Below are positions 1 to 32,000 of a DNA stretch of 32,000 nucleotides, one piece after another; the stretch's first letter is position 1, and the number at the start of each line of letters is the position of its first letter. The translations under genes and the position numbers were made by a program. Source of the DNA: Trichodesmium erythraeum IMS101 (GTDB lineage Bacteria > Cyanobacteriota > Cyanobacteriia > Cyanobacteriales > Microcoleaceae); NCBI RefSeq assembly GCF_000014265.1, contig NC_008312.1, positions 3,450,001-3,482,000 of the forward strand. Reading direction: 5' to 3'. A model generated the notes under the pieces. That model had not been told where the DNA came from, made no database searches, and saw only the letters and a program-made list of their open reading frames with translations.

Positions 1-1476
1 CTATGTAATAATAATATTATTGAAGGAGAACTAGCTGAATGGAGAAGTATTAATGGATTTTATAAATTAACAACAGAAAACAATTGGCAAAGCACAAATT
101 ATGCACCACAACCAAACACCGATCCAATAATTTATGCCCTTGATTTTTTACAGACGCAATTACAAAATCAAGCCAGGAAAAACATAGACCAGCAATACAC
201 CTATATTCTACCAGACTGGTCAAAACTCATAGAACCAACTTTTTATTTAACTACCCGCAAACTCAAAGAATTAGTCCTCGCGATCGCACAAACAAAACCC
301 AGACCCAGAATGAACTTAATAATAGTAGGTTCTGATTGGTCAATTCCTACAAGTTTGCGTAATTATATTCACATATTAGACCTGCCCCTACCCATTGGAG
401 AAGAACTTTATCAAAATATCTTTAAACTTGCTGTTACTAAATACAATTTAGCAGAAAATAGAGCCAAAGACCTTGCAGAAAAAGCTCAAGGAATGAACTT
501 TCAAGCAGTAGCACAAACCGCAAAATTAATCACAACAAAAAAGCTGTGGCAACAACCAGAAGAAGCTTCCAAACTATTATTAGAAGTCAAAAAACAAGAA
601 ATTGAAAAAATCGGCATCTTAGATTATTACGAACCACTAGGAGAAGGACTCCAAGAAGTTGGTGGTTTAGAAAACATCAAAACTTGGGTCAAAGAACGTT
701 ATCCTTGGTTTGAACAAGATGCAGACCCAGATATGCGCCCCCGCGCTCTTTTACTTGAAGGGTTTCCTGGATGTGGAAAATCTTTTATTGCCAGAGCGAT
801 CGCTATTGAATGGCGCGTTCCTCAAATTAACTTTGAAATTAGCAGATTACAATCTCAATGGGTAGGGGAGTCCGAAAGCAATACATATCAAGCTCTCAGA
901 GCAATTGAAGCTTCCGCTCCCAACATTCTATTTATGGATGAAATCGAAAAAGCTTTTGCAGGAGTTGGTGGTGATAGTAGCGGTACTACTACCCGACAGT
1001 TTGGCACATTCCTAACTTGGCTTAATGACCACAAAGAACCAATTTTTTTTATTGCTACATCCAATGATCGTTCCATGCTACCACCAGAAATATTTCGTGC
1101 AGGGCGTTTTGATGAAACTTTTATTGTTATGCCTCCCACAACTAAAGAACGCTACGAAATTATTCAGAAACGAATCAAAGCTCGTCAACTCAAGCCAATT
1201 TCTGATTCACTTTTAGAATATTTAGTAAAAAACACTCTCGGATTTTCAGGAGCTGAACTTGATAAATTAGTTAAAGAAACCAAAATTTTAACTGGACTTA
1301 ATCAAGAACCAACTGAAACTAATTGGCAAAAAGCTCTGAATAAAATTAATCCACAATATAAAAATCCTAGAATGAAAGAGCTTTTAAAGTCTTACATAAA
1401 TTTAATTGTAGAAGGTAATGTACAATCAGCATCCGAAGTTGAAGAAGGCTTTTTTGAGGAACTATTATCAGAATAA
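1..1476 (+). CDS. AAA+ family ATPase (classic AAA module), 5' end probably outside the window
   Basis: Track ORF 310..1476 has Walker A GFPGCGKSF, Walker B ILFMDEIEK and the FRAGRFDE second-region-of-homology string typical of classic AAA modules. Frame 1 has no stop codon between base 1 and the ATG at 310 (LCNNNIIEGELAEWRS...KPRPRM). The CDS therefore very likely starts left of the window, and 310 is only the first in-window ATG. Confidence 0.85.
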   Translation, partial: LCNNNIIEGELAEWRSINGFYKLTTENNWQSTNYAPQPNTDPIIYALDFLQTQLQNQARKNIDQQYTYILPDWSKLIEPTFYLTTRKLKELVLAIAQTKPRPRMNLIIVGSDWSIPTSLRNYIHILDLPLPIGEELYQNIFKLAVTKYNLAENRAKDLAEKAQGMNFQAVAQTAKLITTKKLWQQPEEASKLLLEVKKQEIEKIGILDYYEPLGEGLQEVGGLENIKTWVKERYPWFEQDADPDMRPRALLLEGFPGCGKSFIARAIAIEWRVPQINFEISRLQSQWVGESESNTYQALRAIEASAPNILFMDEIEKAFAGVGGDSSGTTTRQFGTFLTWLNDHKEPIFFIATSNDRSMLPPEIFRAGRFDETFIVMPPTTKERYEIIQKRIKARQLKPISDSLLEYLVKNTLGFSGAELDKLVKETKILTGLNQEPTETNWQKALNKINPQYKNPRMKELLKSYINLIVEGNVQSASEVEEGFFEELLSE

Positions 1477-13268: not shown

Positions 13269-13806
13269 TGTTTAATTTTGATGTTTATAACTATAGCAGT
13301 CCTAAATATTATGTCTAATAACTGAACTTCTTAAAAATATCTCCAACTCCTGTTCCTTCTGCTTCCTATATCTTGCTTTAAAGCAGCCCCAATTTTTTAT
13401 TTTCGAGGTAGGACTGATGTAATAATTCATAGTAAATACTAGAACACTCACCGATTAAATGATTATGTGTATATCATAAATTTATTCCATCACCAACAAG
13501 TATCAACTACTTGGGAAATGCTCAAAAAAATATGATTTTAACTTATTTTTCAGCTTTCATTAATTAGATTAAATTAGATTATGATATTTTTCATTTTGAG
13601 CTTTATTGAAATTTTCTTAATGTTATAAAGCAAGTCATATTTTTGCAGGTGTTAAGAGATTAGGAATAACTAAAAAAGCATTTAGTATGAAAAATTTAAA
13701 TTGACGTTTTATTTTTTCTCTTGATAGTGTTTAACCTGTTAAATATTCATATATTTTTTCATTATTTTGTAGTAATTAATTATTAAGCATCAAAAAATAA
13801 GGAAAA

Positions 13807-14216
13807 AGTAGGAAGTAAGCCGGGTTCTGTTCTCTCAACTCAAACAAGCTTTGAGGGCAGTTATCTATCTGGGATGCCTGTTACCAGACACCTCTTGCGG
13901 TACACCAAACATTACAAATAAATCTATAATGCAATGGAACCGGAAAAAGACCAACCATTGTTCCTTCGACCTTGCTCCCCGCCGGGGTTTACCGAGCCAG
14001 TATCTCACGACACTGCTGGTGCGCTCTTACCGCACCTTTGCACCCTTACCTGAAGTGACTAAACAATAATAATTAATCTACTTTGGCGGTATTTTTCTGT
14101 GGCACTATCCTCACGATCACTCGCACTGGGCGTTATCCAGCAGGCTTGGTCTTTTGGGAGCCCGGACTTTCCTCAGACCCTAAATAAGTATTGAGTCCGC
14201 AACTGCCTCTTCTACT
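13807..14216 (-). ncRNA. rnpB: RNase P RNA (bacterial type A, cyanobacterial form)
   Basis: The reverse complement contains the universal P4 strands GAGGAAAGUCCGGGCUCCCAAAAGACC (near 14150-14180) and ACAGAACCCGGCUUAC (near 13815-13832). It also contains GCUGGAUAACGCCCAGUGCGAGUGAUCGUGAGGAUAGUGCCACAGAAA, GGUAAGGGUGCAAAGGUGCGGUAAGAGCGCACCAGC and CUCGGUAAACCCCGGCGGGGAGCAAGGU, all hallmark RNase P RNA blocks. The ends are set by P1 pairing (AGUAGAAG / CUUCCUACU) and are good to about +/-5 nt. Confidence 0.95.
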
Positions 14217-14416
14217 TTTTCCTATTTAAATTATTGTATCACAGGAGTGAGGCAAATACCCTACATTTAATCTAGTTATTGAATGAGATATTTATAACTA
14301 AAGGATTAAATTCATCCCTAAAAAATCCAAATTACAAGGTGATGAAACTACCACTAATTTTTCGTAAAAACATGGATAATTAATCCTACTCCTAATCTTT
14401 CCTATTCTCTATTCGT

Positions 14417-15613
14417 ATGAAAACAAAAAATATACTTTTTTTAAGTAATGGTCATGGAGAAGATGCCCATAATTGTCAAATTATTAAAGCTTTTACAAAA
14501 ATTTCTCCAGATACAAATATATCAGCTTTACCTATTGTTGGTGTTGGTAATAGTTATGAAAATTTGAATATACCAATTATTGGTCCTCGAGTAAATATGC
14601 CATCAGGAGGATTTTTATATCTCAGTCCTTTATTATTATTTGAAGATTTGGGAAAAGGTTTAATTAGTTTAACTTGGCAGAAGTTACAAACTATTTGGAC
14701 ATTTGCGAAAAACTGTGATTTAATTATGGCTACTGGAGATATTGTAGTGGCAGCTATGGCTTATTCGACAAGGCTTCCTTATATGATATTTCTTTCGGCT
14801 GATTCTAGTTATTATGAAGGTCGGATTAATTTGGGTTTAATATTGCCAAAGTTACTTCATAATTCTCGATGTTTAAAGGTTTTTGCTAGGGATGCTTTGA
14901 CGGCTAAAGATTTAAAAAGACAAGGAGTTACAAAAACAGAATTTGTTGGTACTCCAGTGATGGATAATTTAATTTCAACTGGAAAAAATTTACGGCTTAA
15001 AACGGAATTGTTTACTATTGCTATTTTGCCTGGTTCTCGGTTGCCGGAAGCTGGTAAAAATTTATGTTTGCTGTTGAAACTGGTTAGAGAAATTGTCAAA
15101 GTTATGGGAGTAAATGTTTGTCAGTTTCGAGCTGCAATTGTTCCTATTTTAATGTTTGAATTAGAGGCGATCGCTATTTCTGAAGGTTGGGAATGTCAAG
15201 GAAGTAAGCTAACATTTTTTACTCAGGAATATACAATAGAAGTAATTTGTTATGAGGATGCTTTTGCAGATATTTTACAACATTCAAGTTTGGTAATTGG
15301 TATGGCTGGAACTGCAATAGAACAAGCTGTGGGTTTAGGCAAACCTGTAATTACTATTCCTGGTGAAGGTCCTTCATTTACCTATCGTTTTGCGGAAGCT
15401 CAAACTAGACTTTTAGGTTCTTCTGTACAGGTTATTGGTAAAAGAATGGCTAATAGTTTTATTCTCCAAGAAGCAGCTAGAAAAGTTAAAGAAATTTTGG
15501 CAGATGAAGAGTATTTACAAAGTTGCATTAATAATGGTTTAGAAAGGATGGGGAAGCCTGGTGCTAGTGAAAAAATAGCTAATTATCTTGTTAAGTATCT
15601 GAGTTCAGACTAA
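14417..15613 (+). CDS. Lipid-A-disaccharide-synthase-related (LpxB-like, GT-B fold) protein
   Basis: 398 aa with ATG start. The N-terminal FLSNGHGEDAHN motif and the C-terminal GMAGTAIEQAVGLGKPVI glycosyltransferase-like nucleotide-sugar loop match my memory of the cyanobacterial 'lipid-A-disaccharide synthase-related protein' family. This is unverified. Confidence 0.6.
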   Translation: MKTKNILFLSNGHGEDAHNCQIIKAFTKISPDTNISALPIVGVGNSYENLNIPIIGPRVNMPSGGFLYLSPLLLFEDLGKGLISLTWQKLQTIWTFAKNCDLIMATGDIVVAAMAYSTRLPYMIFLSADSSYYEGRINLGLILPKLLHNSRCLKVFARDALTAKDLKRQGVTKTEFVGTPVMDNLISTGKNLRLKTELFTIAILPGSRLPEAGKNLCLLLKLVREIVKVMGVNVCQFRAAIVPILMFELEAIAISEGWECQGSKLTFFTQEYTIEVICYEDAFADILQHSSLVIGMAGTAIEQAVGLGKPVITIPGEGPSFTYRFAEAQTRLLGSSVQVIGKRMANSFILQEAARKVKEILADEEYLQSCINNGLERMGKPGASEKIANYLVKYLSSD

Positions 15614-15878
15614 GTTTATAGGGTGAATTACTAAGTTGATATTAAGATGGCTAGAGTATTTAATATTGATGGTTTTGGGAGGGGGATTTTCAGGTTTTGC
15701 TTTCTGATGATTCAGTTAAGTATTGTGGCTTTTTGATGTGGCTAATATCTAAAACTTATTCTGGACGAAAAATTCTGGGTGACAAAAAAATTAATAGGGA
15801 GAATAAAGGGCTTTGAATTATATTTTTTAATATTTTTAATGGCATAAGTAGATACACAAGATTAATTTAATAAGGTTG

Positions 15879-16922
15879 CTAGAAACGACAAATTGATTCT
15901 GGTTGTATAGGACAGGTTTTTTGAGTAAGTGGGTTATTTCGCAGATGTAGAGATTTTAATTTTGCTAGAGTTGATAAGGAGCTAATATCTGTTATTTTGT
16001 TGCGACTTAAGTCTAATAAGGTAAGGTCGTTTAAGGTTGATAAAGAATCTACTTTTGTAATTTGATTGAAAACTAGGAGAAGAGATTTGAGGTGATTTAA
16101 ATTAGAGAGGTTTGAGATTTCTTTGATGTAGTTATCGCTGAGGCTAAGGTAAGTTAGGTTGGTAAGATTAGAAAGAGATGAAATATGGCTTATTTGATTT
16201 CGATATAGATATAGGTTTGTGAGGTTTGTTAGGCTCGAGAGTGGGGAAAGTTCCTTGATATTATTATCATTAAGATATAGGTGGGTTAAGTTGGTTAGAT
16301 TTCTTAAAGGTTTGATGTTTTTGATGTGGTTTACTCCAAGATTTAGTCGAGTTAATTGAGTTAGGTTGGATAGGGAAGATATATCTTCTATTTGATTAAA
16401 AATTAGGTTGAGATGAGTTAGTTTGCCTAAGTTGGATAAGGAGGATAAATTTTTGATTTTATTATCGTTGATACTAAGGTGAGTTAGGTTGGTTAATTGA
16501 GATAGGTCAGCAATATTTATGATTCTATTATTATCTAAATATAAATGAGTTAGTTTTTGGAGTTTAGAGAGGGGGAAGAGTTCTGAAATTTCATTGTTAT
16601 TCAGAGATAGTTGAGTGATATTTTTGAGGGTAGATATTGGGAGAATATTTCTAATCTGATTATTATTTAGGGAAAAATAGGAGAGTTGGGAAAGTTTTTC
16701 TTCTGCTTCAATACAATTTTGAGTTTTTACTTTTTGCAAAATAATTTTAATTGTGTATTGGGCACTGGGAGAAATATTGCTTTGATTTAAACACCATTCT
16801 CTAAAGGTGGAAAATTTTTCTGGGGAGATGGGGCTGGCATTTACAGAGTTTTGTTTTAAGAGTATTGTTGAGCAAATATAAATGCTAAAAAAGATGGTTT
16901 TTAGGTTTTTTAATGTTAACAT
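15879..16922 (-). CDS. Secreted leucine-rich-repeat (internalin-like LRR) protein
   Basis: 347 aa with ATG start and a hydrophobic N-terminal signal-like segment (IFFSIYICSTILL). About 12 consecutive 22-residue repeats follow the pattern LS.LTNLT.L.L..N.I..I.. Confidence 0.85.
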   Translation of the reverse strand: MLTLKNLKTIFFSIYICSTILLKQNSVNASPISPEKFSTFREWCLNQSNISPSAQYTIKIILQKVKTQNCIEAEEKLSQLSYFSLNNNQIRNILPISTLKNITQLSLNNNEISELFPLSKLQKLTHLYLDNNRIINIADLSQLTNLTHLSINDNKIKNLSSLSNLGKLTHLNLIFNQIEDISSLSNLTQLTRLNLGVNHIKNIKPLRNLTNLTHLYLNDNNIKELSPLSSLTNLTNLYLYRNQISHISSLSNLTNLTYLSLSDNYIKEISNLSNLNHLKSLLLVFNQITKVDSLSTLNDLTLLDLSRNKITDISSLSTLAKLKSLHLRNNPLTQKTCPIQPESICRF

Positions 16923-17630
16923 TCGTACCTCACATACTTGACATTTGCTGTCGTGCTAAGGCTGAAAACAACAATGCTATTCTTGATTAAACTTCAATTT
17001 AAGTCAGGTTTTTACTAAATTGATAACACTTTCTTATTCAGTTTTTTAGTAGGTTTTGTTACATAATCAATCAAGATAGTTTGAGATAATATAATCATAT
17101 TTTTATAATTTTGTTTGACAAATGAAAACTTTTAGTGTAGGTTAATAATATAGTTTAATTAGTTTTAAACAATCTTAGGGCATAAGTATTCAGCACTGTA
17201 TTTAGTTAGCTCAAGCTCTCTTCCTAGTCGTGTTGGGATAAAAGATGTATGAAAGTAATAAGTTACTAAGTAATAAGTTACTAAGCTGAACTAATCATCT
17301 TTTTCCTGCCGGGCTTTAAATTCTTCTTCTTGGGTTATTAATGTTTCTTTTCCTTCTAGCTGATGGCTGACTCTGAAGGGCTGAATGCTTACCTTAAGAC
17401 TAATAACAGGATTTGGTATGGTATACTTTCCCTTCACCCAGACTTACTAATATCCATAAATGACCAATTGAATTGTCTCTACAAATTAGTCGCTCCCTGG
17501 AACAATATTTATGTAATATTTTTTTTCAGTAAATCTTTATACAGAATATTTAATTTTTGTAAATATGTATTTACGAATACAGAAATAAGTGAAATAATAA
17601 TATTGTCACTATTCAGGAGGGTTGAGTTCC

Positions 17631-17837
17631 ATGGAATTTGAGAATTATCAGAGTAGATCTGTTTTAGACCGGGTTACCGCTAGCTTTTTTGTAGCCTTTA
17701 CTATGTTCATAGTTAGTTACACTGCAACACGGGTTTATCTAAGCCACTCATCGGAAATAAATATTCAAACACGATCAGATGTCATACCCCATCCGGGTTC
17801 GTTGTGGAGCGACTTGGGTAAGGGACTTGGGCAGTAA
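17631..17837 (+). CDS. 68-aa hypothetical single-pass membrane protein
   Basis: The track ORF starts at a TTG at 17622. An ATG at 17631 sits 10 nt after a strong AGGAGG (17615-17620), giving MEFENYQSRSVLDRVTASFFVAFTMFIVSYTATRVYL... with one TM helix. A decayed paralogous copy lies about 870 bp downstream. Confidence 0.5.
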   Translation: MEFENYQSRSVLDRVTASFFVAFTMFIVSYTATRVYLSHSSEINIQTRSDVIPHPGSLWSDLGKGLGQ

Positions 17838-17865
17838 ATAACTTGAATATTGCAAAAAGTCTTTG

Positions 17866-17921
17866 AAATAGAATAGGCGATCGCTTTTTTTTGGTAATAG
17901 GAGCGATCGCCTATTCTATTT
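17866..17921. repeat. Perfect 20-bp inverted repeat centred on two HIP1 sites (possible terminator or palindromic element)
   Basis: AAATAGAATAGGCGATCGCT (17866-17885) is the exact reverse complement of AGCGATCGCCTATTCTATTT (17902-17921), with a 16-nt loop. It lies 28 nt after the stop of the 68-aa ORF. No canonical U-tract follows the stem. Confidence 0.5.
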
Positions 17922-18233
17922 AAATATCAAACTAATAGAAAAGCTTAGGACTTAGGCACCACTAACTATATACCTAGAATTATGTGTAATTATATCTCTA
18001 CTACTCAAACATACCAGTATATTTTTTTGTTCGTAAACTAACCCTATTTAAAATTTGTATTGCTCAAAAGAGTTTTACCTAAGACCTTGACTTTTAAAGC
18101 GGAATATCTTAACAAAGTTACTCCAGCAGAGCCGTCACAAAAATAACTAATGTAGACTGTGCTACAGAATAAATCTCAATAAATTGAGATAATTTCATAA
18201 AATATTAATAATTTAATTAATAAGGTAATAAGT

Positions 18234-18392
18234 ATGAGCACCTTTAACTTAGTTAGTTTAGCATTTCCAGCTATCTTAGGAATAATAACGGGAATTGGTC
18301 ATGGAATACTTGCCCATCATATAGACTTACCAATGTCCATAGCTGAACAATTTAAGTTGTCTGAAAAAATTAATAGCTCCTGGGAAAAATAA
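18234..18392 (+). CDS. Possible 52-aa hydrophobic peptide (hypothetical)
   Basis: ATG-initiated ORF below the track cut-off: MSTFNLVSLAFPAILGIITGIGHGILAHHIDLPMSIAEQFKLSEKINSSWEK*. It has one hydrophobic segment, no clear Shine-Dalgarno and no family I recognise. Confidence 0.2.
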   Translation: MSTFNLVSLAFPAILGIITGIGHGILAHHIDLPMSIAEQFKLSEKINSSWEK

Positions 18393-18506
18393 GTTTTGGG
18401 AAAATATTTAATATTGATCTATAAAAAATAGAAATGATAACTGAAATCTTAAGTGATAAAAGACTAGATTATAGTTAGTTCAATAGATAGATGGATATCT
18501 AGTCAT

Positions 18507-18710
18507 ATGCAATTTCATAGTTCTCAAAAGATATTTATTTTCAAGTATTTTATGGCCAGCTTTCCCGTAGCTTTTGTAATTTTTGTATGAAGTTATACAT
18601 CAACACGGGCAACAAGGATTTATTAAAATAAGTTATCACAGGTAAACTTTCAGGTAGGATCGGATGTGAAACCCTATCCAGCTTCGTTGTGGATAGACTT
18701 GAGTAGTAAA
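18507..18710 (+). pseudogene. Decayed duplicate of the 17631..17837 small-protein gene
   Basis: Nucleotide similarity to copy 1 is visible by eye, for example ...CAACACGGG..., ...GGATGTGAAACCCTATCCAGCTTCGTTGTGGA... versus ...AGATGTCATACCCCATCCGGGTTCGTTGTGGA..., and ...TAAATAA(A/C)TTGAATATT..AAAAAGTCTTTGA.ATAG. Premature stops interrupt the frame (MQFHSSQKIFIFKYFMASFPVAFVIFV*). It is followed by its own HIP1 hairpin, AGGCGATCGCT 18747-18757 / AGCGATCGCCT 18774-18784. Confidence 0.5.
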
Positions 18711-18867
18711 TAAATTGAATATTAAAAAAAGTCTTTGAGATAGTTGAGGCGATCGCTTTTTTTGGTGATAGGTAGCGATCGCCTAGATCATCATTCTATC
18801 TATACAAATTTTTTGAATATAAAACCAGTGGAAAAGACTAGGACTGACGCACCATTATAAAAAACTA

Positions 18868-23877: not shown

Positions 23878-26800
23878 TTAGAGAGTTCTCCCGCCATCGC
23901 AGACAAGACGAAAACCAGAATTGATGATGTGGACGTCGCGCCTAAGACCGTCGGTGCGAACCGCAGAACGGCAAATATCAGGACTGTTGTTCCAAGAACC
24001 GCCCCGCAGCGGTGAGCGTTGTTTGTCTCCATTTAGCCAAGTGCTGCCGTCTATAGGAGCATTTCGATAATTATCATGCCATTCATCACCACACCATTCC
24101 CAAACGTTTCCGTGCATATCATATAACCCAAAACCATTGGCTGAAAACTGACCTACAGGAGTTGTTTGCTTTCTATGTTCTCCTTTTGGCTCATCCGCAT
24201 AAGTCACTGACGCATTATAATTAGCTAACTCTCCTGTGATCGTTTCTCCACAGCTAAAAGGTGGATAACTTTCTCCCTTTCCTAGGCCTAAAGCTTTTCT
24301 CTGTGCTCGACAAGCATATTCCCATTCCGCTTCACTGGGTAGTCTATAATTCCTTCCTGTTAATTTCGATAGTCTTTTACAAAATTCTACAGCTTTGTAC
24401 CAACTCACGGCCTCAACTGGTCTCTGCCATCTATCTATACCTTGGTATGGTTTTTTGAAATAAGATGGCTCTGGGTTTAGGTCTAATTCTACTTTTAAGT
24501 CTGTTCGAGAAGCGATCGCTCTCCACTGTCCTTGAGTAACCGGATATTTGCCCATAAAAAAGGGAGAAACAGTCACATTATGCTGGGGGCGTTCTGTATC
24601 TCTGTTAAGTTTTTCACTTTCAGGAGAACCCATGGTAAAAGTACCACCAAGAATAGCTACCATTTCTAGTTCTAACTGTTGCGCAATAGTTTCCCTAAAA
24701 TATCGAGCAAACTTAGTATCTTGCTTAATAATTTTTCCTCCTCGGTCAACTGTTGGCGTTGTATATTCATAGTGAAAAACCTCAAGGTCGGAGGGAAATG
24801 AAACCCCTTCTCTTTTTAAACTCCCAACAAAAGTTTTCCTGACAGAACACAATACACGAAAACCAGTATTGTTGAAACGGCTGTAGCTCATATTGATCTC
24901 AGAGCAATACGCAGAAAGGGACTTATCAGGACGGCTGCTCCAAGAACCTCCGCGGAGGGGTGAACGGTTTTTATTTCCATCTAGCCAAACACTTCCATCT
25001 ACAGGAGCACCATTATAGTTTTCATGCCATTCATCACCACACCACTCCCTTACGTTTCCGTGCATATCATATAACCCAAAACCATTGGCTGAAAATTTAC
25101 CTACAGGAGTTGTTTGCTCTCTATATTCTCCTTTTGGTTCATCGGCATAAGTCACTGACGCATCATAATTAGCTAGCTCTCCTGTGATCGTTTCTCCACA
25201 GCTAAAAGGTGGATAACTTGCTCCCTTTCCTAGGTCTAAAACTTCTGTCTCTGCTCGACAAGCATATTCCCATTCTGCTTCACTGGGTAGTCTATAATTC
25301 CTTCCTGTTAGTTTTGATAGTCTTTGACAAAATTCTACAGCTTCGTAGCAATTCACGTTTTCAACTGGTCTCTGCCATCTATCTATACCTTGGTATGGTT
25401 CTTTAAAAGTAGATGGCTCTGGGTTTAGGTCTAACTCTACTTTTAAGTCGGTTCGGGAAGCGATCGCTCTCCACTGTCCTTGAGTAACCGGATATTTCCC
25501 CATAAAAAAGGGAGAAACAGTCACATTATGTTGGGGGCGTTCTCTATCCGTACTACCTTTTTCACTTTCAGGAGAACCCATAGTAAAAGTACCACCAGGA
25601 ATAGCCACCATTTCCAAATTAATACCATCCGCAAGAAATTCCCTGAAATAAGGAGCGATATAAGCTGTTGTGTTGATCACTTCCCCCCGTCGGTTAACTG
25701 TGGGCGTTTTATAAGCAAAAACTTGATTTTCTTTAGGAAGTTTTTTCCCCTTATAAGCAAAAACTTGATTTTCTAACTTAGGAAGTTTTTTCCCCTCAAC
25801 ATTCTCAGAAATTTCATTTTGAGACCTTTCTATTTCCCGAGCAAAATCAGCATAAGGTCCTCCTAATCTTTTTAAAACTTTAGTTGCAACCGTAGCAAAA
25901 TATTTAACATCTAAATCTAAAACATTCCTCTCAGTTTTTAACCTTTCCAACTCATCAGGTTTTTTCAATAAAGCCAAAAATTCTCGAGGACTATTCCCCA
26001 GTCTATTAGCAAAATCCTGAGAAATCATAGTAATAATTTCCTGAGCATTCTTTCTCGGACTATCCTTCAGCAAAATATCTCTAATTTCCTCATCAATAAA
26101 CTGATATTGAACCTGATCAAAATCAATATCAGGAGTAATCAAAGATTGAGGTTTAAGAATATTACCGAGAAATACCTCAGCCACATGAACCTGTTGAGAA
26201 TCTCTCAGAAAATTCTTTTGAATTGACCGTACAATAGGTAAATTAATCACTGGTGCAGCAGAAAGATACTCAGCTAACTTTTGTGCTGTTTTTGAAGAAC
26301 TCATCTTAAAATTATACAGCCGTTTTTCACCTGTTAAATTTGCTCTTTCTTGGTCTGAGACTGTTTGATTCTGGTCTAGTTTTAATAAAGAAGAAAAAAC
26401 AAAACCACCAGCACCAATAATTCCTTTTCCTACCACCATTTCGCTCCAAGTTTCTATTAGTTCTGGTTCCAAACTAAATACAGGAACTTTGATTCCAGTT
26501 TGTAAATTATCATTACTCCCAAAAAAAACTTCCCTAACCAATAAATTAGAATTAGGAACCCTAGGCTGTAAACAATCCAATTGTACCATTGCCCCTAAAC
26601 TCAGAGCCGTTCTTAACCACAAACGTCGAGGTAAAACTTGGATAATTGCCACAATATTGTACTTTCCCCAATTTTTTAAGAGAGAAAAAAACTGACCATT
26701 ACGCCAAATCTTGCTAACACAATCACTAACTACTAAAATCAAACGACGACCAGTAGGATCGATAAGTTTTTGAGGATAAAAAAGATGATGAGAATAAGGA

Positions 26801-27468
26801 TTTTGTTTAATCCCTTGTTTAAGGCAAATTTTTCCCTTTGTGTCTGTCAAAATTCTCCAAGTTTTTACATTCCGAAAAATACCATAACGTTTGAATAATT
26901 GTTGTAATTCTTGAATATTTTTATCCCAAAAAATCATAGAATCACTTTGGTCAACCACTAAAGCCAAATCAAACTGAAGTTCCAGAGGATATTTGAGAAT
27001 AGGAACACAAAGTCCTTCTAATTGAGCAATATTTTCAACTGTAGCTTTTTCATCTAATAAAACTGCTTTACCATAAGAAATATATTCCATTAGAGGACGA
27101 AAAGCGCTAGCAATTTTCAAAGGGTGACGCAGTGAAGAAACATCAGGAGCTTTTATGGATAAATCACTTTTATTAGAAGAAGTAGAATTAGTTTTAGGAG
27201 TAACTTCAGCGTAGGAATTATTTTCAGGAATTTTCGGATAAAAACTATCTTGAAATTGTGTAGTAGAAGATCTTGTAGAAGATATTGTAGTATTTACTTT
27301 TTCACCTGTAGTTATTTGATTTTTAGAGGGTATTTTTTTATCAACTGAAGAGGGATATTGACGCCGCATTGCCAACCAAAGATTTTCGGCAATTTCTGTA
27401 CCTGTTAGTTTTAACTCTTTTTCTAATAGTCTAATTAAATTATCAAATTTATCAGTTTTTTTAGTCAT
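23878..27468 (-). CDS. vWA-domain protein (SAV_2336-like N-terminal helix + vWA) fused to two tandem FGE-sulfatase (SUMF1/PvdO-type) domains
   Basis: 1196 aa with ATG start. The N-terminus reads TEIAENLWLAMRR and is followed by an S/T-rich linker. The vWA region reads LLDEKATVENIAQ...FDLALVVDQSDSMIFW...RRLILVVSDCVSKIW...VAIIQVLPRRLW, with MIDAS DxSxS = DQSDS at 26938-26952. Two FGE-sulfatase modules (aa ~586-876 and ~902-1192) carry MVAIPGGTFTMGSP, RPQHNVTVSPFFMGKYPVTQGQW, YRLPSEAEWEYACRA, GLYDMHGNV(W/R)EWC and RGGSW. Confidence 0.85.
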   Translation of the reverse strand: MTKKTDKFDNLIRLLEKELKLTGTEIAENLWLAMRRQYPSSVDKKIPSKNQITTGEKVNTTISSTRSSTTQFQDSFYPKIPENNSYAEVTPKTNSTSSNKSDLSIKAPDVSSLRHPLKIASAFRPLMEYISYGKAVLLDEKATVENIAQLEGLCVPILKYPLELQFDLALVVDQSDSMIFWDKNIQELQQLFKRYGIFRNVKTWRILTDTKGKICLKQGIKQNPYSHHLFYPQKLIDPTGRRLILVVSDCVSKIWRNGQFFSLLKNWGKYNIVAIIQVLPRRLWLRTALSLGAMVQLDCLQPRVPNSNLLVREVFFGSNDNLQTGIKVPVFSLEPELIETWSEMVVGKGIIGAGGFVFSSLLKLDQNQTVSDQERANLTGEKRLYNFKMSSSKTAQKLAEYLSAAPVINLPIVRSIQKNFLRDSQQVHVAEVFLGNILKPQSLITPDIDFDQVQYQFIDEEIRDILLKDSPRKNAQEIITMISQDFANRLGNSPREFLALLKKPDELERLKTERNVLDLDVKYFATVATKVLKRLGGPYADFAREIERSQNEISENVEGKKLPKLENQVFAYKGKKLPKENQVFAYKTPTVNRRGEVINTTAYIAPYFREFLADGINLEMVAIPGGTFTMGSPESEKGSTDRERPQHNVTVSPFFMGKYPVTQGQWRAIASRTDLKVELDLNPEPSTFKEPYQGIDRWQRPVENVNCYEAVEFCQRLSKLTGRNYRLPSEAEWEYACRAETEVLDLGKGASYPPFSCGETITGELANYDASVTYADEPKGEYREQTTPVGKFSANGFGLYDMHGNVREWCGDEWHENYNGAPVDGSVWLDGNKNRSPLRGGSWSSRPDKSLSAYCSEINMSYSRFNNTGFRVLCSVRKTFVGSLKREGVSFPSDLEVFHYEYTTPTVDRGGKIIKQDTKFARYFRETIAQQLELEMVAILGGTFTMGSPESEKLNRDTERPQHNVTVSPFFMGKYPVTQGQWRAIASRTDLKVELDLNPEPSYFKKPYQGIDRWQRPVEAVSWYKAVEFCKRLSKLTGRNYRLPSEAEWEYACRAQRKALGLGKGESYPPFSCGETITGELANYNASVTYADEPKGEHRKQTTPVGQFSANGFGLYDMHGNVWEWCGDEWHDNYRNAPIDGSTWLNGDKQRSPLRGGSWNNSPDICRSAVRTDGLRRDVHIINSGFRLVCDGGRTL
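23893..25713 (-). repeat. In-frame 948-bp (316-codon) tandem duplication of the FGE-sulfatase module inside the vWA gene
   Basis: Module 1 spans 24841-25713 and module 2 spans 23893-24765. Long identical runs include the 41-residue QHNVTVSPFFMGKYPVTQGQWRAIASRTDLKVELDLNPEPS. The antisense track ORFs at 24261 and 25209 (MDNFLPFLGLKL / MDNLLPFLGLKL) are exactly 948 bp apart. Confidence 0.9.
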
Positions 27469-27479
27469 ATTTATTAAAC

Positions 27480-27593
27480 GTAGGTTGGGCTAACGTACGA
27501 CAACCAACATAACTAAATTATATCAATAAAATACACTCAACATTACCAAAATTATCCTGATGTTTGACTTCAGTGTCGTTCTGCCCAACCTAC
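27480..27593. repeat. 11-bp inverted repeat bracketing most of the moxR-vWA intergenic spacer
   Basis: GTAGGTTGGGC (27480-27490) and GCCCAACCTAC (27583-27593) are exact reverse complements, 92 nt apart. They lie inside the 144-bp gap between the two genes. Confidence 0.6.
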
Positions 27594-27612
27594 ATTACTA
27601 TTGACATTGTTA

Positions 27613-28758
27613 TCAAAATTCATCCGTAGTTGATAAACCCTTCAATAATAAAGCTTGTAAGTCATCAGTAAAAGCTTCTGGACTAAGGTTATTGCGAATA
27701 TAAATAGCATTCAATAACTGATCCGTTGCCCGTTCCTGTTCGTCCTTTTCCAAAAAAGCTTCAATAAGTTCCTCAGTTGTTGTCTTCAAACTTTCACCTT
27801 GTTCCTCATCCTGAAAATGAGCCTTAATAATAGTTTGAAGAGCTGCCGCACCCGGGTCTGGCATTCTTATTCGGAGACAGCGGCGCACAAAAGCCGGAGG
27901 AAAGTCCCGTTCCCCATTACTAGTCATAATTACAATAGGAAAACTAGAACAATGAACTCTTCCCCCTATAATAGAAGCTTTGATACCCGCATCTTCCGTC
28001 CGCACTTTTACTTTTGTTGGTTGATCATTTTCAGAACTTTTTTCAGACCTATCAGCCCAACGGACCAACTCAGGAATTTCAAACCTTCCCTCCTCAAATA
28101 AGTGAAGCAAATCATTCGGCAAATTAATATCACTTTTATCTATCTCATCAATTAATAATACTCTCGGATATAAAGAAGGTAAAAAAGCTGTTCCTACCGG
28201 GCCCAAAGTGACATATTGGCCAATATTTTGTAAGTTCTCCCTATTTAACTGAGAATCTTGTAACCGAGCGATCGCATCATAACGATAAAGTCCATCGACC
28301 AAATTAGAACGAGCTGTAATGGGCCAATTCAATACGGGCCCTAATTTTAATTCCTGTGCGATCGCATAAGCCAAGGAAGTTTTACCCGAACCAGGGTTTC
28401 CTGTGACCAAAAGAGGCCGTCGTAAATATATTGCAGCATTTACGGCATCAACAACATTAACAAGTGGTTTTTGACCATCATCTTCCTCAGTTATTTCTGA
28501 GGAATAAACACGAAATTTTTCACCCTTTTCTCTACCCCTTTTATTATCATCAGACTCAGCTAAAATTTGAATATTTTGCCAATCTTTTTCCAGTTGTTTT
28601 TTTAATTCAGAATCTTTTTCTATCTCTTGAAATTTTCGCCAAGGGGGAGGATCAGGAAGGTCAGCAATATTAACATTATGTGTATTTCCATCACCATAGA
28701 AAAAAAGCCAGGCTTGTTGATTTTCCATCATATTATTTTGGGGATAAATTTTTACCAC
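27613..28758 (-). CDS. MoxR-like AAA+ ATPase (partner of the vWA protein)
   Basis: 381 aa. Walker A GNPGSGKTSLA (28378-28401 covers GNPGSGKT) and Walker B VLLIDEIDK (28135-28161). There is an N-terminal extension with PDPPPWRKF. The start is a GTG at 28758, preceded by AAGGAG with a 6-nt spacer. The gene begins 37 bp after the stop of the upstream gene. Confidence 0.8.
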   Translation of the reverse strand: MVKIYPQNNMMENQQAWLFFYGDGNTHNVNIADLPDPPPWRKFQEIEKDSELKKQLEKDWQNIQILAESDDNKRGREKGEKFRVYSSEITEEDDGQKPLVNVVDAVNAAIYLRRPLLVTGNPGSGKTSLAYAIAQELKLGPVLNWPITARSNLVDGLYRYDAIARLQDSQLNRENLQNIGQYVTLGPVGTAFLPSLYPRVLLIDEIDKSDINLPNDLLHLFEEGRFEIPELVRWADRSEKSSENDQPTKVKVRTEDAGIKASIIGGRVHCSSFPIVIMTSNGERDFPPAFVRRCLRIRMPDPGAAALQTIIKAHFQDEEQGESLKTTTEELIEAFLEKDEQERATDQLLNAIYIRNNLSPEAFTDDLQALLLKGLSTTDEF

Positions 28759-28795
28759 TGCTTTCTCCTTTTTTAAGAACTAATTATTTAGTTGA

Positions 28796-30325
28796 TTAAA
28801 ATTGATTAAAAGCAGGAATGTTGATTGGTTTGCGGTCATTACAATCACATAAAATTCTTAAATGGTAACCTAAAGATTCTGTTTTAGAACTATCAGCAAT
28901 AGCCAGGTCTGTTTTACGAATATCAAAAATTTGTGTATATAATTGATTAACATCTGACAAATTTTCTAATTCTATTAAATGATTGAGCTTATCTATTAAA
29001 GATTGATAATGGGAATCATTTAAATTATCCCTTTGATTTTTCCTTTTTATCCATAGACATAAAGGAACTCCCTTTTCTAAAATAACTTCAAATAAATTAA
29101 ATGCTTTATTATTTCCTTTAGGTAAACCACAGGATATTTTCAGGATAATTTTATCCTCTAATTTATTTCCTAGCTGTTTTCTTTTTTGTGGGTTAGACAA
29201 GAATTCATTTAATTTATCTTCCACTTCAAAAGCTAAAATATTATTTGATATAACTGGTTTTTTCTCCATAATTTTCCAGTTTTTTTTGCAACAGTTTAGC
29301 CAACTAGTTTTACCTGGTTGTAATCGTTCTAAAGAGCGTAAAATTACAGGATATTCTTCACAAATAGCTTTTTGTTTTGCTTTTAAAGCACTAGGAATTT
29401 TAAACTCAAAATCTTTAATAAAAAGTTCTCTCTTTAAAAATAGCTCAAGTTTTAAATCATAAGTTTTATTTTGTTGCACTAGTTTACGCAAATATACCTC
29501 TTGAACCTGCTCAATGAATTTATAAATAATATTAGGAATTTGCTTTTCTGAATATCCATTTTCCTCAAAATCTTCTTTCTTCAGCTCAACTTGAATATTT
29601 TTAGTATGACCCCAGTTTTCAATAAACTCACCTTGAACATTAAATGTTTTTTTATGATTTTTAATCTGACTTCCCATAGGAAAAATAGTTATCAAAAGAT
29701 AGCTTTGGAGATCAGATGGTTTGTCTTTTTTATCAGGAATATTTATATCTGAGCAATTTGTTTCTATCCATTTTCTCAATCTTTGCTTGAGATAATCTCT
29801 AATATCTTCAGCATTCAAAATTTTAACTAAATATTGTTCTACAAAATCTATGAACTTTGGATCATAGTAAAAATAAAAACTATCTCTATCACTAAAAAGC
29901 AAACCATTACCATTTTTTTCAGTTTTTTCAGTTTCTTCAGTTAACTCTAATAAATGCTCTTCTAATTTATCTATATTTTCAAAGTCCCCAAAAAAAATCC
30001 CAAAATTTTGGTTTTCTGAAAAAATTTTTTTTAGTAAAAAAATAAGAGTAGAAAGTTGTGAATATGTTTGGTAAAGTTCTTCAATTAATGGATAGTCCTC
30101 ACTAACAATTTTAACAAAATCAACAATAAGTTCTGTATTATTTAGCTCAATGATTAAATTAATCAACCTTGTATGATAGGTATCTCCTTTAATTTTATTA
30201 TAAAAATTAGCTCCAAATTTCTCTGGATATTCAGAAAATATACTTGTCAGTTTATCCTCACTTAATACCTTTTCAATCTCTTCACGAAATTTGATTCTTT
30301 GCTTATCAGTAAATTTCATTTGCAA
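28796..30325 (-). CDS. EAD-like (Death-like effector-associated domain) N-terminal module fused to a VMAP-like (vWA-MoxR-associated protein) body
   Basis: 509 aa. The first ~77 aa are about 85-90% identical to the upstream 85-aa ORFs. The remainder is K/E/I/L-rich with no catalytic motif I recognise. The segment LELFLKRELFIKDFEFKIP...EEYPVILRSLERL resembles, from memory, the VMAP C-terminal domain core. Its position directly upstream of the MoxR and vWA genes fits the family. The track start at 30325 is TTG; an ATG lies 6 nt downstream at 30319. Confidence 0.6.
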   Translation of the reverse strand: MQMKFTDKQRIKFREEIEKVLSEDKLTSIFSEYPEKFGANFYNKIKGDTYHTRLINLIIELNNTELIVDFVKIVSEDYPLIEELYQTYSQLSTLIFLLKKIFSENQNFGIFFGDFENIDKLEEHLLELTEETEKTEKNGNGLLFSDRDSFYFYYDPKFIDFVEQYLVKILNAEDIRDYLKQRLRKWIETNCSDINIPDKKDKPSDLQSYLLITIFPMGSQIKNHKKTFNVQGEFIENWGHTKNIQVELKKEDFEENGYSEKQIPNIIYKFIEQVQEVYLRKLVQQNKTYDLKLELFLKRELFIKDFEFKIPSALKAKQKAICEEYPVILRSLERLQPGKTSWLNCCKKNWKIMEKKPVISNNILAFEVEDKLNEFLSNPQKRKQLGNKLEDKIILKISCGLPKGNNKAFNLFEVILEKGVPLCLWIKRKNQRDNLNDSHYQSLIDKLNHLIELENLSDVNQLYTQIFDIRKTDLAIADSSKTESLGYHLRILCDCNDRKPINIPAFNQF

Positions 30326-30354
30326 TGTACTTACATTACTATTTTATCTACTAT

Positions 30355-30612
30355 TTATAAATCTTGAGCAAAATTATGATACTCATACCTAACAACTTTA
30401 ATAAAATCAAAAATAAGTTCTCTATTATTTAGCTCAATGATTAAATTAATCAACCTTGTACGATAGTCACCTCCTGGAATTTGATTATAAAAATTAGCTC
30501 CAAATTTCTCTGGATATTCAGAAAATATACTTGTCAGTTTATCCTCACTTAATACCCTTTCAATCTCTTCACGAAATTTGATTCTTTGCTTATCAGTAAA
30601 TTTCATTTGCAA
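30355..30612 (-). CDS. Stand-alone EAD-like module, array unit A (allele ...GANFYNQIPGGDY...)
   Basis: 85-codon ORF. The track start is TTG and the ATG 6 nt downstream (30606) would give 83 aa. The helical pattern FTDKQRIKFREEIERVLSEDKLTSIF...RTRLINLIIELNNRELIFDFIKVV fits the EAD1-like L..Q...L...L...F....L..ml....L.......(loop)....v..Li.....g....L layout. Confidence 0.6.
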   Translation of the reverse strand: MQMKFTDKQRIKFREEIERVLSEDKLTSIFSEYPEKFGANFYNQIPGGDYRTRLINLIIELNNRELIFDFIKVVRYEYHNFAQDL

Positions 30613-30641
30613 TGTACTTACATTACTATTTTATCTACTAT

Positions 30642-30899
30642 TTATAAATCTTGAGCAAAATTATGATACTCATACCTAACAACTTTAATAAAATCAAAAA
30701 TAAGTTCTCTATTATTTAGCTCAATGATTAAATTAATCAACCTTGTACGATAGTTATCTCCAGAAATTTGATTATAAAAATTATCTCCAAATTTCTCTGG
30801 ATATTCAGAAAATATACTTGTCAGTTTATCCTCACTTAATACCCTTTCAATCTCTTCACGAAATTTGATTCTTTGCTTATCAGTAAATTTCATTTGCAA
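30642..30899 (-). CDS. Stand-alone EAD-like module, array unit B (allele ...GDNFYNQISGDNY...)
   Basis: Starts exactly 287 bp from unit A. It is identical to unit A except for the 11-nt patch at 30754-30764 and the A/D codon at 30784. Confidence 0.6.
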   Translation of the reverse strand: MQMKFTDKQRIKFREEIERVLSEDKLTSIFSEYPEKFGDNFYNQISGDNYRTRLINLIIELNNRELIFDFIKVVRYEYHNFAQDL

Positions 30900-30928
30900 T
30901 GTACTTACATTACTATTTTATCTACTAT

Positions 30929-31186
30929 TTATAAATCTTGAGCAAAATTATGATACTCATACCTAACAACTTTAATAAAATCAAAAATAAGTTCTCTATT
31001 ATTTAGCTCAATGATTAAATTAATCAACCTTGTACGATAGTCACCTCCTGGAATTTGATTATAAAAATTATCTCCAAATTTCTCTGGATATTCAGAAAAT
31101 ATACTTGTCAGTTTATCCTCACTTAATACCCTTTCAATCTCTTCACGAAATTTGATTCTTTGCTTATCAGTAAATTTCATTTGCAA
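30929..31186 (-). CDS. Stand-alone EAD-like module, array unit C (allele ...GDNFYNQIPGGDY...)
   Basis: Starts exactly 287 bp from unit B, with the same ORF structure. Confidence 0.6.
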   Translation of the reverse strand: MQMKFTDKQRIKFREEIERVLSEDKLTSIFSEYPEKFGDNFYNQIPGGDYRTRLINLIIELNNRELIFDFIKVVRYEYHNFAQDL

Positions 31187-31215
31187 TGTACTTACATTAC
31201 TATTTTATCTACTAT

Positions 31216-31473
31216 TTATAAATCTTGAGCAAAATTATGATACTCATACCTAACAACTTTAATAAAATCAAAAATAAGTTCTCTATTATTGAGCTCAATG
31301 ATTAAATTAATCAACCTTGTACGATAGTCACCTCCTGGAATTTGATTATAAAAATTATCTCCAAATTTCTCTGGATATTCAGAAAATATACTTGTCAGTT
31401 TATCCTCACTTAATACCCTTTCAATCTCTTCACGAAATTTGATTCTTTGCTTATCAGTAAATTTCATTTGCAA
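31216..31473 (-). CDS. Stand-alone EAD-like module, array unit D (protein identical to unit C)
   Basis: Starts exactly 287 bp from unit C. It differs from unit C only by a synonymous T-to-G change at 31291. Confidence 0.6.
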   Translation of the reverse strand: MQMKFTDKQRIKFREEIERVLSEDKLTSIFSEYPEKFGDNFYNQIPGGDYRTRLINLIIELNNRELIFDFIKVVRYEYHNFAQDL

Positions 31474-31502
31474 TGTACTTACATTACTATTTTATCTACT
31501 AT

Positions 31503-31760
31503 TTATAAATCTTGAGCAAAATTATGATACTCATACCTAACAACTTTAATAAAATCAAAAATAAGTTCTCTATTATTGAGCTCAATGATTAAATTAATCA
31601 ACCTTGTACGATAGTTATTTCCAGAAATTTGATTATAAAAATTATCTCCAAATTTCTCTGGATATTCAGAAAATATACTTGTCAGTTTATCCTCACTTAA
31701 TACCCTTTCAATCTCTTCACGAAATTTGATTCTTTGCTTATCAGTAAATTTCATTTGCAA
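31503..31760 (-). CDS. Stand-alone EAD-like module, array unit E (allele ...GDNFYNQISGNNY...)
   Basis: Starts exactly 287 bp from unit D. The patch at 31615-31625 carries a third allele. Confidence 0.6.
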   Translation of the reverse strand: MQMKFTDKQRIKFREEIERVLSEDKLTSIFSEYPEKFGDNFYNQISGNNYRTRLINLIIELNNRELIFDFIKVVRYEYHNFAQDL

Positions 31761-31789
31761 TGTACTTACATTACTATTTTATCTACTAT

Positions 31790-32000
31790 TTATAAATCTT
31801 GAGCAAAATTATGATACTCATACCTAACAACTTTAATAAAATCAAAAATAAGTTCTCTATTATTTAGCTCAATGATTAAATTAATCAACCTTGTACGATA
31901 GTCACCTCCTGGAATTTGATTATAAAAATTATCTCCAAATTTCTCTGGATATTCAGAAAATATACTTGTCAGTTTATCCTCACTTAATACCCTTTCAATC
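31790..32000 (-). CDS. Stand-alone EAD-like module, array unit F (5' end cut by the window edge)
   Basis: The stop codon at 31790-31792 is exactly 287 bp from unit E's. The sequence through 32000 matches unit C, and the ORF continues past the window end. Confidence 0.55.
   Translation of the reverse strand, partial: IERVLSEDKLTSIFSEYPEKFGDNFYNQIPGGDYRTRLINLIIELNNRELIFDFIKVVRYEYHNFAQDL

Follow-up and report, generated by a model that had tools for sequence, protein, structure and literature searches.

A probable VMAP-type vWA-MoxR conflict system with adaptor-only genes and a hypervariable FGE domain in Trichodesmium erythraeum IMS101

A stretch of 32,000 nucleotides from Trichodesmium erythraeum IMS101 (contig NC_008312.1, positions 3,450,001 to 3,482,000; hereafter the window, the numbering of which is used throughout) carries three co-directional minus-strand open reading frames (ORFs) that encode a VMAP protein, an AAA+ ATPase of MoxR-like type, and a protein joining a vWA domain to two FGE-sulfatase domains (Table 1). 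The genes are separated by spacers of 37 bp (28759-28795) and 144 bp (27469-27612), exactly as claimed in a preliminary description made from the sequence alone. That description called the trio a complete three-gene operon. The trio is real, but the word complete understates the locus, as a CHAT-EAD partner gene and an array of EAD-only genes lie upstream, and a probable link to a diversity-generating retroelement (DGR) had been missed. For DNA beyond window position 32000, the upstream arrangement was taken from syntenic contigs of metagenome-assembled genomes (MAGs) and of the TARA collection.

The VMAP ORF has 509 amino acids (aa) when read from a TTG, and the likelier start is the ATG at 30319, which gives a 507-aa protein identical to Tery_2230. 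The ATPase ORF of 381 aa begins with a GTG, and its N terminus (MVK...) is kept in orthologs, some of which start with ATG; by numbering and accession order it is Tery_2229. The vWA-FGE protein of 1196 aa is Tery_2228 (ABG51457, by accession order), and the small ORFs upstream of the VMAP gene are identical to Tery_2231-2235. Promoter and terminator scans of the A+T-rich DNA of the window performed no better than shuffles.

Products of the three core genes

The 509-aa protein had been proposed to be a VMAP, and it matches both VMAP profiles above the Pfam cut-offs. VMAP-M12 (PF20015) covers residues 92-227 (29645-30052) with an E value of 2.3e-92 and 306.6 bits, and VMAP-C (PF20028) covers residues 255-494 (28844-29563) with 3.6e-15 and 56.9 bits, the cut-off being 27 for each. 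The N-terminal ~75 residues (about 30089-30319) match EAD6 (PF19958) at 0.0042 and 17.7 bits, under the cut-off of 27, and an EAD-only protein scores 16.0 bits with the same profile, likewise under the cut-off. Weak EAD6 matches are also precomputed for proteins P0008 and P0199, and the VMAP of an unclassified cyanobacterial MAG (L003; L numbers denote related loci) matches EAD1 instead of EAD6, with 20.5 bits. A profile of 449 positions, which had started as an EAD profile and was turned into a whole-VMAP profile by sequence weighting, gave 319 matches at E <= 1e-3 among 1.84 billion proteins; it gauges the spread of VMAP and not the frequency of EAD-only genes.

The ATPase contains the Walker A motif GNPGSGKT (residues 120-127), the Walker B motif VLLIDEIDK (200-208), and the PDPPPWRKF segment, and a sensor-1 TSN (279-281) and an arginine pair, RR (292-293), can be recognized by eye. 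Pfam AAA (4.9e-8, 33.9 bits) and AAA_5 (2.1e-7, 31.5 bits) are both above their cut-offs. The N terminus holds W17LFFYG22 and P38PWRKF43, which are invariant except for K42 in six orthologs from three genera. The corresponding published motifs, WxhapG and PsWRxa, are seen in no MoxR outside these systems according to Kaur et al. (2020, eLife 9:e52696). The two system-specific N-terminal motifs and the AAA_5 match are in line with the MoxR-type assignment made earlier. The ATPase is 83 to 91% identical across genera, whereas the VMAP of the same genera is only about 60% identical. Between IMS101 and Trichodesmium sp. ALOHA_ZT_67, 10 of 1146 nucleotides (nt) of the ATPase gene differ (0.9%), at codon positions 1, 2, and 3 in 1, 2, and 7 cases, respectively. 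The ATPase is under strong constraint.

The 1196-aa protein proved to have all of the parts previously ascribed to it, namely, the ENLWLAMRR helix, an S/T-rich linker, DQSDS at residues 173-177, a helical middle region, and two FGE-sulfatase domains. Residues 23-491 match the NCBIfam model SAV_2336_NTERM (1.9e-114, 383 bits), and Pfam FGE-sulfatase matches in two stretches (2.3e-113). An AlphaFold2 (AF2) model built with 28 homologs, with a mean predicted local distance difference test score (pLDDT) of 76.8, shows a helical hairpin at residues 4-36, a disordered S/T-rich linker at 35-109, an alpha/beta domain at 110-360, and a helical domain at 380-558, the last being the counterpart of what Kaur et al. 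2021 call the vWA-L linker. The metal ion-dependent adhesion site (MIDAS) is well conserved, with D173 present in 27/28 sequences, S175 in 23/28, and both S/T177 and D249 in 28/28. The isolated vWA, N-terminal, and linker segments gave no Pfam matches at E = 10, VWA models included. The N-terminal helix reads E25-x2-[DE]28-x2-W31, with A27 and W31 invariant, and is only an approximate fit to the published [DE]xxx[DE]xxxa.

The N-terminal module of this protein is widespread in filamentous cyanobacteria and is mostly fused to a single FGE domain. Other fusions join it to caspase, GUN4, small GTPase, sigma-70, REC, CHAT, or kinase domains, and the vWA proteins of L003 and L015 combine REC, caspase, and FGE domains. 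Such variability of the C-terminal domain has been described by Kaur et al. 2020. The double-FGE form appears to be unusual, because among the 120 N-terminal homologs listed the longest does not exceed 961 aa. A 42-bp tandem repeat (two copies, 93% matches) lies within the vWA gene at 25709-25796, so that the peptide KKLPK(L)ENQVFAYK stands twice in the linker just ahead of FGE1, and it may mark a boundary for the duplication or exchange of FGE modules.

TABLE 1 Features of the VMAP locus in window coordinates
Feature	Position	Strand	Basis or remark
VMAP (Tery_2230)	28796..30325	-	Pfam PF20015, PF20028; identity to Tery_2230
MoxR-like AAA+ ATPase (Tery_2229 by numbering)	27613..28758	-	Pfam AAA, AAA_5; motifs
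vWA - helical linker - 2 x FGE (C-type-lectin-like [CLec]) protein (Tery_2228)	23878..27468	-	NCBIfam, Pfam, AF2, Foldseek
N-helix of Tery_2228	27361-27459	-	AF2 model
vWA domain, MIDAS D173-x-S175-x-S177 ... D249	about 26389-27141	-	AF2, Foldseek, conservation
Helical vWA-L	about 25795-26331	-	AF2 model
FGE1	about 24850-25614	-	Pfam FGE-sulfatase
VR1, FGE1 equivalent of VR2	24853..24942	-	Strain comparison; lacks the 3' GC-rich element
FGE2	about 23902-24666	-	Pfam FGE-sulfatase
VR2, hypervariable 3' region of FGE2	23905..23994	-	Comparison of IMS101 with ALOHA_ZT_67
EAD-only copy 5 (Tery_2231), variants G-A-N and PGGD	30355..30612	-	ORF, unit alignment
EAD-only copy 4 (Tery_2232), loop SGDN	30642..30899	-	ORF, unit alignment
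EAD-only copy 3 (Tery_2233 by gene order), loop PGGD	30929..31186	-	ORF, unit alignment
EAD-only copy 2 (Tery_2234 by gene order), loop PGGD	31216..31473	-	ORF, unit alignment
EAD-only copy 1 (Tery_2235), 85 aa from TTG or 83 aa from ATG, loop SGNN	31503..31760	-	Product identical to P0001 and P0026
Partial unit, EAD coding at 31790-32000 plus 29-nt spacer	31761..32000	-	6/240 nt differ from the tail of unit 1

Gene order, the CHAT partner, and the EAD-only array

All 10 related loci whose sequence extends far enough share the order VMAP-ATPase-vWA. They are Trichodesmium contigs from MAGs, TARA, or ENA (L006-L009, L012 of ALOHA_ZT_67, L018, and L020), Okeania loci (L004 and L005, the latter with its VMAP broken up into short ORFs), an Okeania-like MAG (L015), and the unclassified cyanobacterial MAG (L003). 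At L001, VMAP and ATPase genes are followed by a truncated ORF. This linkage in related genomes, along with the Pfam VMAP matches, the ATPase motifs, and the MIDAS, agrees with the initial identification of the trio as a ternary vWA-MoxR-VMAP system.

Directly upstream of the VMAP gene in L001, L003, L012, L015, L018, and L021 is a gene for a caspase-like CHAT protein (Pfam CHAT, 4.7e-20 to 4.7e-21), in which His (FIGHG) and Cys (QACETG) motifs are visible by eye, as expected of a catalytic dyad. The last ~80 residues of the CHAT protein, ending in ...YEY(H/Y)NFAQDL*, are the same helical domain that forms the VMAP N terminus. In other genomes this EAD is fused to CHAT and FGE domains and, as judged by eye, to TIR and GUN4-like domains. 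Its AF2 model is a confident all-helical bundle (pLDDT 91.2), and a Foldseek search of the PDB with that model gave no matches at E < 1, the top TM-scores (0.48-0.53) belonging to CARDs at E = 7 to 10. By these sequence relationships, VMAP and CHAT carry paired adaptors, in keeping with the EAD (effector-associated domain) principle of Kaur et al., in which a core component and an adjacent signaling peptidase have one copy of the domain each; EAD6 belongs to a class credited with recruiting signaling components.

Two further ORFs accompany these loci. In every case the CHAT gene is preceded by an ORF of ~311 aa (L012:7642-8577, L001, L003-L005, L015, L018, and L020-L022), which has no Pfam matches at a threshold as loose as E = 1 and could be a fifth component of the system. 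A classical AAA ATPase of 388 aa is encoded at window positions 310-1476 on the plus strand, and in L003 and L004 ORFs of equal length are located a few kilobases upstream of CHAT; the three may be orthologs displaced by rearrangement in Trichodesmium.

Within the window, the space immediately upstream of the VMAP gene is occupied by a tandem array with a 287-bp period, detected by Tandem Repeats Finder at 30102-32000 on the minus strand (6.6 copies, 97% matches, score 3623), that repeats the VMAP N-terminal module. Five of its units are complete, and every one of them contains an intact ORF of 83/85 aa; a partial unit follows, and the array continues past the window end. The partial unit could be a further EAD-only gene or else the EAD at the C terminus of the CHAT protein encoded upstream. 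The units differ at no more than 7 nt, and most of the differences fall in one 10-nt patch that encodes either SGNN/SGDN (VMAP-type) or PGGD (CHAT-type). Each unit is a mosaic that joins the spacer found between CHAT and VMAP to a VMAP-type start (MKFTDKQRIKF), after which come an EAD body of CHAT type and its stop; at the array-free locus L001, the spacer between CHAT and VMAP has the identical sequence. In array-free relatives, the CHAT-EAD and VMAP-EAD segments repeat each other imperfectly in direct orientation, at a distance of 266-305 bp and with 70-79% identity over 150 nt, which makes them a ready substrate for unequal crossing-over. The five EAD-only genes thus apparently arose by unequal recombination between adjacent paralogous EAD segments. 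The VMAP EAD of IMS101 shares 85.5% identity with the array EAD, a value that falls to 54-65% for CHAT/VMAP EAD pairs elsewhere. The older VMAP-type EAD is retained in ALOHA_ZT_67 and in TARA scaffold L021, so the VMAP adaptor of IMS101 was largely overwritten by conversion.

EAD-only genes are also present outside IMS101. The product of copy 5 is identical in ALOHA_ZT_67 (L012), the 83-aa product of copy 2 occurs on TARA scaffolds between CHAT and VMAP, and the gap-free TARA scaffold L021 has a complete CHAT gene, one EAD-only gene, and VMAP. A gap of 100 N is found exactly at the array position in three scaffolds (L012, L020, and L022), and draft assemblies stop inside the EAD. An assembly artifact was considered as the source of the array and was rejected, as the genome record, which annotates each copy as a gene, holds three ordered haplotypes and independent assemblies either contain an EAD-only gene or break there. 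A silent cassette store for antigenic-type variation was ruled out on the grounds that the units are nearly identical.

The CHAT/VMAP junction has been rearranged independently in other lineages. In L006-L011, whose cluster members each occur on tens of contigs, the CHAT gene is a fragmented pseudogene with stops and deletions (L006:1500-2551), and its C-terminal EAD survives as a 90-aa ORF. L023 has a CHAT remnant followed by an 83-aa EAD-only unit, and L002 has an internal deletion in CHAT. In L015 (3133-4600; GCA_010692535.1), a perfect 897-bp tandem duplication created a 286-aa chimera upstream of an intact VMAP, composed of the N-terminal 200 VMAP residues (EAD plus VMAP-M12), a CHAT-type linker, and an EAD; a scaffold gap there suggests more copies. 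The simple arrangement is seen in L001, L003, L004, and L005. L018 and L019 assemble likewise, the repeat there possibly being collapsed.

Two readings of the array were weighed. The first is that it is a selectively neutral side effect of recombination in a genome that is rich in repeats and in part decaying, with no regulatory role, and that the system may be degenerating; we give this an even chance of being correct. Its units are 97-100% identical and hence recent, indeed too recent for any selection test. The same junction bears the 897-bp duplication of L015, the internal CHAT deletion of L002, and the CHAT pseudogenes of L006 and L023, and the pseudogene in the sister Trichodesmium lineage hints at decay. 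The IMS101 genome is moreover only about 60% coding, and its main DGR reverse transcriptase (RT; Tery_1728/1729) is pseudogenized (Pfreundt et al. 2014). On the other side, many independent ocean assemblies, gap-free L021 with its complete CHAT among them, have an intact EAD-only ORF located between CHAT and VMAP, every unit retains the start, stop, and spacer inherited from functional genes, and the VMAP, ATPase, and vWA core genes are intact and constrained.

The second reading, which we put forward tentatively, is that Tery_2231-2235 are functional adaptor-only regulators that titrate CHAT recruitment by occupying the EAD of VMAP, their copy number setting the suicide threshold of the filament. 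Animals possess CARD-only and Pyrin-only proteins (COPs and POPs), which are adaptor-only tandem duplicates beside caspase-1 that copy the recruitment domain of the protease. The EAD-only genes resemble these in being adaptor-only tandem duplicates next to a caspase-family protease, and the parallel predicts competition for a homotypic contact. The likeness is one of arrangement; the Foldseek CARD matches are insignificant at E > 7. If the regulatory reading is true, the EAD-only genes would be a bacterial counterpart of the CARD-only and Pyrin-only inflammasome inhibitors, reached by the same tandem-duplication route, and the CHAT/VMAP adaptor junction would be a recombination hotspot through which lineages retune or disarm the system quickly. 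In the event that the adaptor-only proteins are decoys, the parallel between bacterial and animal caspase recruitment would extend to negative regulators.

Variable regions and a probable DGR link

The IMS101 and ALOHA_ZT_67 loci are 99-100% identical across ~10 kb, except in the VMAP EAD and FGE2. The most variable segment is the 90-nt variable region of FGE2 (VR2), where 21/90 nt differ (23%), distributed over codon positions 1, 2, and 3 as 12, 9, and 0. The 27-nt tail immediately 3' of VR2, which contains TGCGATGGCGGGAG, a candidate initiation of mutagenic homing (IMH) element, has 0/27 differences. Over the rest of the gene, the segment from vWA to FGE1 differs at 17/2639 nt (codon positions 3/4/10) and the FGE2 body at 49/835 nt (5.9%; 15/15/19). 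The VMAP body is 1.9% divergent, with 18 of its 24 differences at codon positions 1 and 2. Adenine mutagenesis of AAY codons produces variation of this kind, limited to codon positions 1 and 2 of a GGSW..CRSA..GFRV scaffold. Another cyanobacterium (L014) has an FGE-domain gene (1792-2298), an otherwise unrelated DGR target, with a variable region (VR) on a VR2-type scaffold, and it shares the 3' elements TGCGATGGCGGAAG and TGCGATGGCGG[GA]AG. It is followed, at 1501-1722 on the minus strand, by an ORF of 73 aa whose product resembles an Avd-type four-helix bundle when judged by eye; this is seemingly part of a DGR cassette.

The two FGE domains are about 95% identical in their cores and diverge over the last ~100 nt. 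VR1 is 1 nt different from its ALOHA_ZT_67 counterpart and 3 aa different from that of MAG_R01. We read VR1 as a former target that has lost its homing signal, because it differs from VR2 in a VR-like manner, is near-invariant between the strains, and has no 3' element. VR2 itself bears the signature of a DGR target, on the basis of its mutation spectrum and of the DGR linkage of about 80% of cyanobacterial VMAP systems (Kaur et al. 2020). Pfreundt et al. 2014 place a template repeat (TR) of IMS101 at 2632789r and report 12 or more remote FGE targets, and the literature gives Tery_1035 as a second RT of this genome. The fast change of VMAP, FGE2, and VR2 beside a conserved ATPase has, in these sequence comparisons, the appearance of conflict-type evolution.

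A probable conflict system and its relatives

We consider it probable that the trio represents the cyanobacterial FGS subtype of VMAP-type vWA-MoxR ternary conflict systems and is embedded in a larger operon-like unit. The best explanation of the gene order is a unit that runs [311-aa ORF] - CHAT-EAD - n x EAD-only - EAD-VMAP - MoxR-like ATPase - vWA-linker-FGE1-FGE2. In the proposed mechanism, FGE2, which has a C-type-lectin fold, would have its tip rewritten by a DGR located elsewhere in the genome and would act as a variable receptor for an invader-derived molecule, following the model of Dore et al. The ligand signal would pass to the vWA domain, through MIDAS-dependent peptide capture, and to a hexameric MoxR-like ATPase, and ATP-driven remodeling of the vWA-VMAP complex would set a threshold, as Kaur et al. 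envisage. Remodeled VMAP might then expose or oligomerize its N-terminal EAD, leading to homotypic EAD-EAD recruitment and proximity activation of CHAT and to proteolysis, whereupon the infected cell of the filament would stop growing or die. If the EAD-only genes are expressed, their products would vie with CHAT-EAD for binding to the VMAP adaptor, and the threshold for activation would rise.

The direction of signaling in this scheme could be reversed. In the model of Kaur et al. 2020, who defined the family, it is the middle region of VMAP that detects the invader, with the MoxR-vWA pair setting a threshold, and the recruited peptidase cleaves the vWA protein to free the FGE domains as "neutralizing" effectors. 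The VMAP body is also fast-evolving, as seen in the codon-position counts given above, and the long disordered linker with its repeated KKLPK..NQVFAYK before FGE1 could provide cleavage sites. We nonetheless regard this wiring as doubtful for the IMS101 locus, since a hypervariable, DGR-rewritten lectin-fold tip is receptor-like in every characterized DGR system, and Dore et al. favor the sensor role on the same grounds. Still less probable, in our judgment, is an endogenous signaling or programmed cell death module, serving for example bloom collapse or stress, in which the DGR tunes a regulatory receptor: cyanobacterial DGR-diversified CLec paralogs have been read as regulatory-pathway tuning (Vallota-Eastman et al. 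2020), mechanisms resembling programmed cell death have been described for Trichodesmium (Pfreundt et al. 2014), and the Esr relative signals to a secretion system (bioRxiv 10.64898/2026.09.08.750141), but fast VMAP and sensor evolution, C-terminal domain swapping, and DGR coupling are typical of conflict systems.

A number of observations weigh against the reading of the locus as a DGR-diversified ternary conflict system. The ATPase has no Pfam AAA_3 match, and PDB sequence and profile searches with it match at the P-loop only (RuvBL and TRIP13), which is uninformative on MoxR membership. Support for the vWA fold is numerically weak: in the Foldseek search with the vWA model, the best PDB match was NorD, the vWA partner of the MoxR ATPase NorQ, followed by the vWA domains of CMG2/ANTXR and CLCA1, but E values were only 5e-3 to 5e-2 and phosphoribosyltransferase (PRTase) folds were interleaved. 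PADLOC-DB 2.0 contains no match for the VMAP or the vWA protein, nor for the EAD, and gave only P-loop-level matches for the ATPase (IetA, TRIP13, and others). In the literature searched, no experiment on any VMAP-type system was found, in line with the earlier statement that no member had been characterized experimentally. With respect to the DGR, neither an RT nor a TR is encoded in the window (24 kb downstream of the operon and the 1.7-kb array upstream), and a metagenome scan with a pattern fixed at the invariant VR2 positions returned one contig, which held another VR and no TR. The main IMS101 RT is a pseudogene, as noted above, and ABG51457 appears twice in Vallota-Eastman et al. 2020 as a CLec paralog and not as a remote variable protein. 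The divergence of FGE2 along its whole length points to a contribution from allele or paralog replacement besides DGR action.

Comparison with the VMAP systems of Kaur et al. 2020 is nevertheless close in most respects. Shared features are the gene order VMAP-MoxR-vWA, a tripartite VMAP (EAD, VMAP-M12, and VMAP-C), an ATPase with WxhapG and PsWRxa, a vWA domain with helical flanks and a disordered linker, a C-terminal FGS, an EAD-paired CHAT neighbor, and a filamentous host. The class and the subtype, with vWA fused to FGS in cyanobacteria and mostly DGR-linked, have already been described there, and the IMS101 genome is listed in the organism table of that paper. The IMS101 locus differs from those systems in its tandem pair of FGE domains, of which one has a live variable region and the other a frozen one. 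It also has five tandem genes for the adaptor alone, whereas under the published EAD principle extra EAD copies are fused to effector or signaling domains. The passages of Kaur 2020 and Kaur 2021 found by term searches do not mention adaptor-only genes or arrays, and Tery_2228-2236 are unmentioned in the literature searched. We therefore rate the three-gene core as known and the adaptor-only amplification and the live/frozen double sensor as new.

With the DGR variable proteins of C-type-lectin/FGE fold (Bordetella phage Mtd, Treponema TvpA, and those of the T. erythraeum DGR), FGE2 shares a C-terminal GGSW...CRSA...GFRV scaffold, variation that is limited to codon positions 1 and 2, and, directly behind the VR, a conserved element rich in GC. 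Unlike them, FGE2 is fused to a vWA module and not to a kinase or a surface protein. The pairing of an AAA+ ATPase with a MIDAS-containing vWA partner is shared with NorQ/NorD, CbbQ/CbbO, and RavA/ViaA, and NorD is the protein that the vWA model matched best in structure. Those pairs mature or metal-load specific enzymes, whereas the IMS101 pair sits in a variable, conflict-type architecture with VMAP. The Esr pathways of Actinomycetales are MoxR-vWA threat-sensing pathways of the beta-propeller type that have been studied experimentally (bioRxiv 10.64898/2026.09.08.750141). They too have a MoxR-vWA pair downstream of a sequence-divergent sensor and provide a precedent for a path from sensor to MoxR/vWA to output. 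Esr differs in its beta-propeller surface sensor, kinase/FHA relay, and Esx output, and it lacks VMAP, EAD, and FGE.

VMAP ternary systems are among the most elaborate predicted immune or cell-death machines of prokaryotes, and here one is found in a culturable, ecologically important nitrogen fixer for which transcriptome maps exist. Nature has provided "mutants" of the adaptor layer: relatives with zero or one adaptor-only gene and an intact CHAT, five such genes in IMS101, a CHAT pseudogene with the adaptor kept, and a VMAP-EAD chimera in the Okeania-like MAG. A live and a frozen hypervariable sensor tip can in addition be contrasted within one protein. These natural variants and the two tips make it possible to test whether the FGE/CLec domain is the sensor and whether EADs couple by competable homotypic binding.

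Three other regions of the window deserve mention. A full-length bacterial class A RNase P RNA (255 bits) is encoded at 13800-14219 on the minus strand. The 1.9 kb at 16923-18867 have no ORFs of at least 100 aa and gave only sub-threshold chance matches with Rfam; they contain an imperfect duplication of ~0.9-1.1 kb (17049-17111/18152-18214 and 17724-17913/18609-18785, 71-82% identity) with palindromic hairpins of GCGATCGC (HIP1), and are possibly duplicated noncoding RNA genes, which are numerous in Trichodesmium. The GC skew is strongly positive (0.38-0.51) at 15000-17000, over the gene for a leucine-rich-repeat protein (15879-16922, minus strand).

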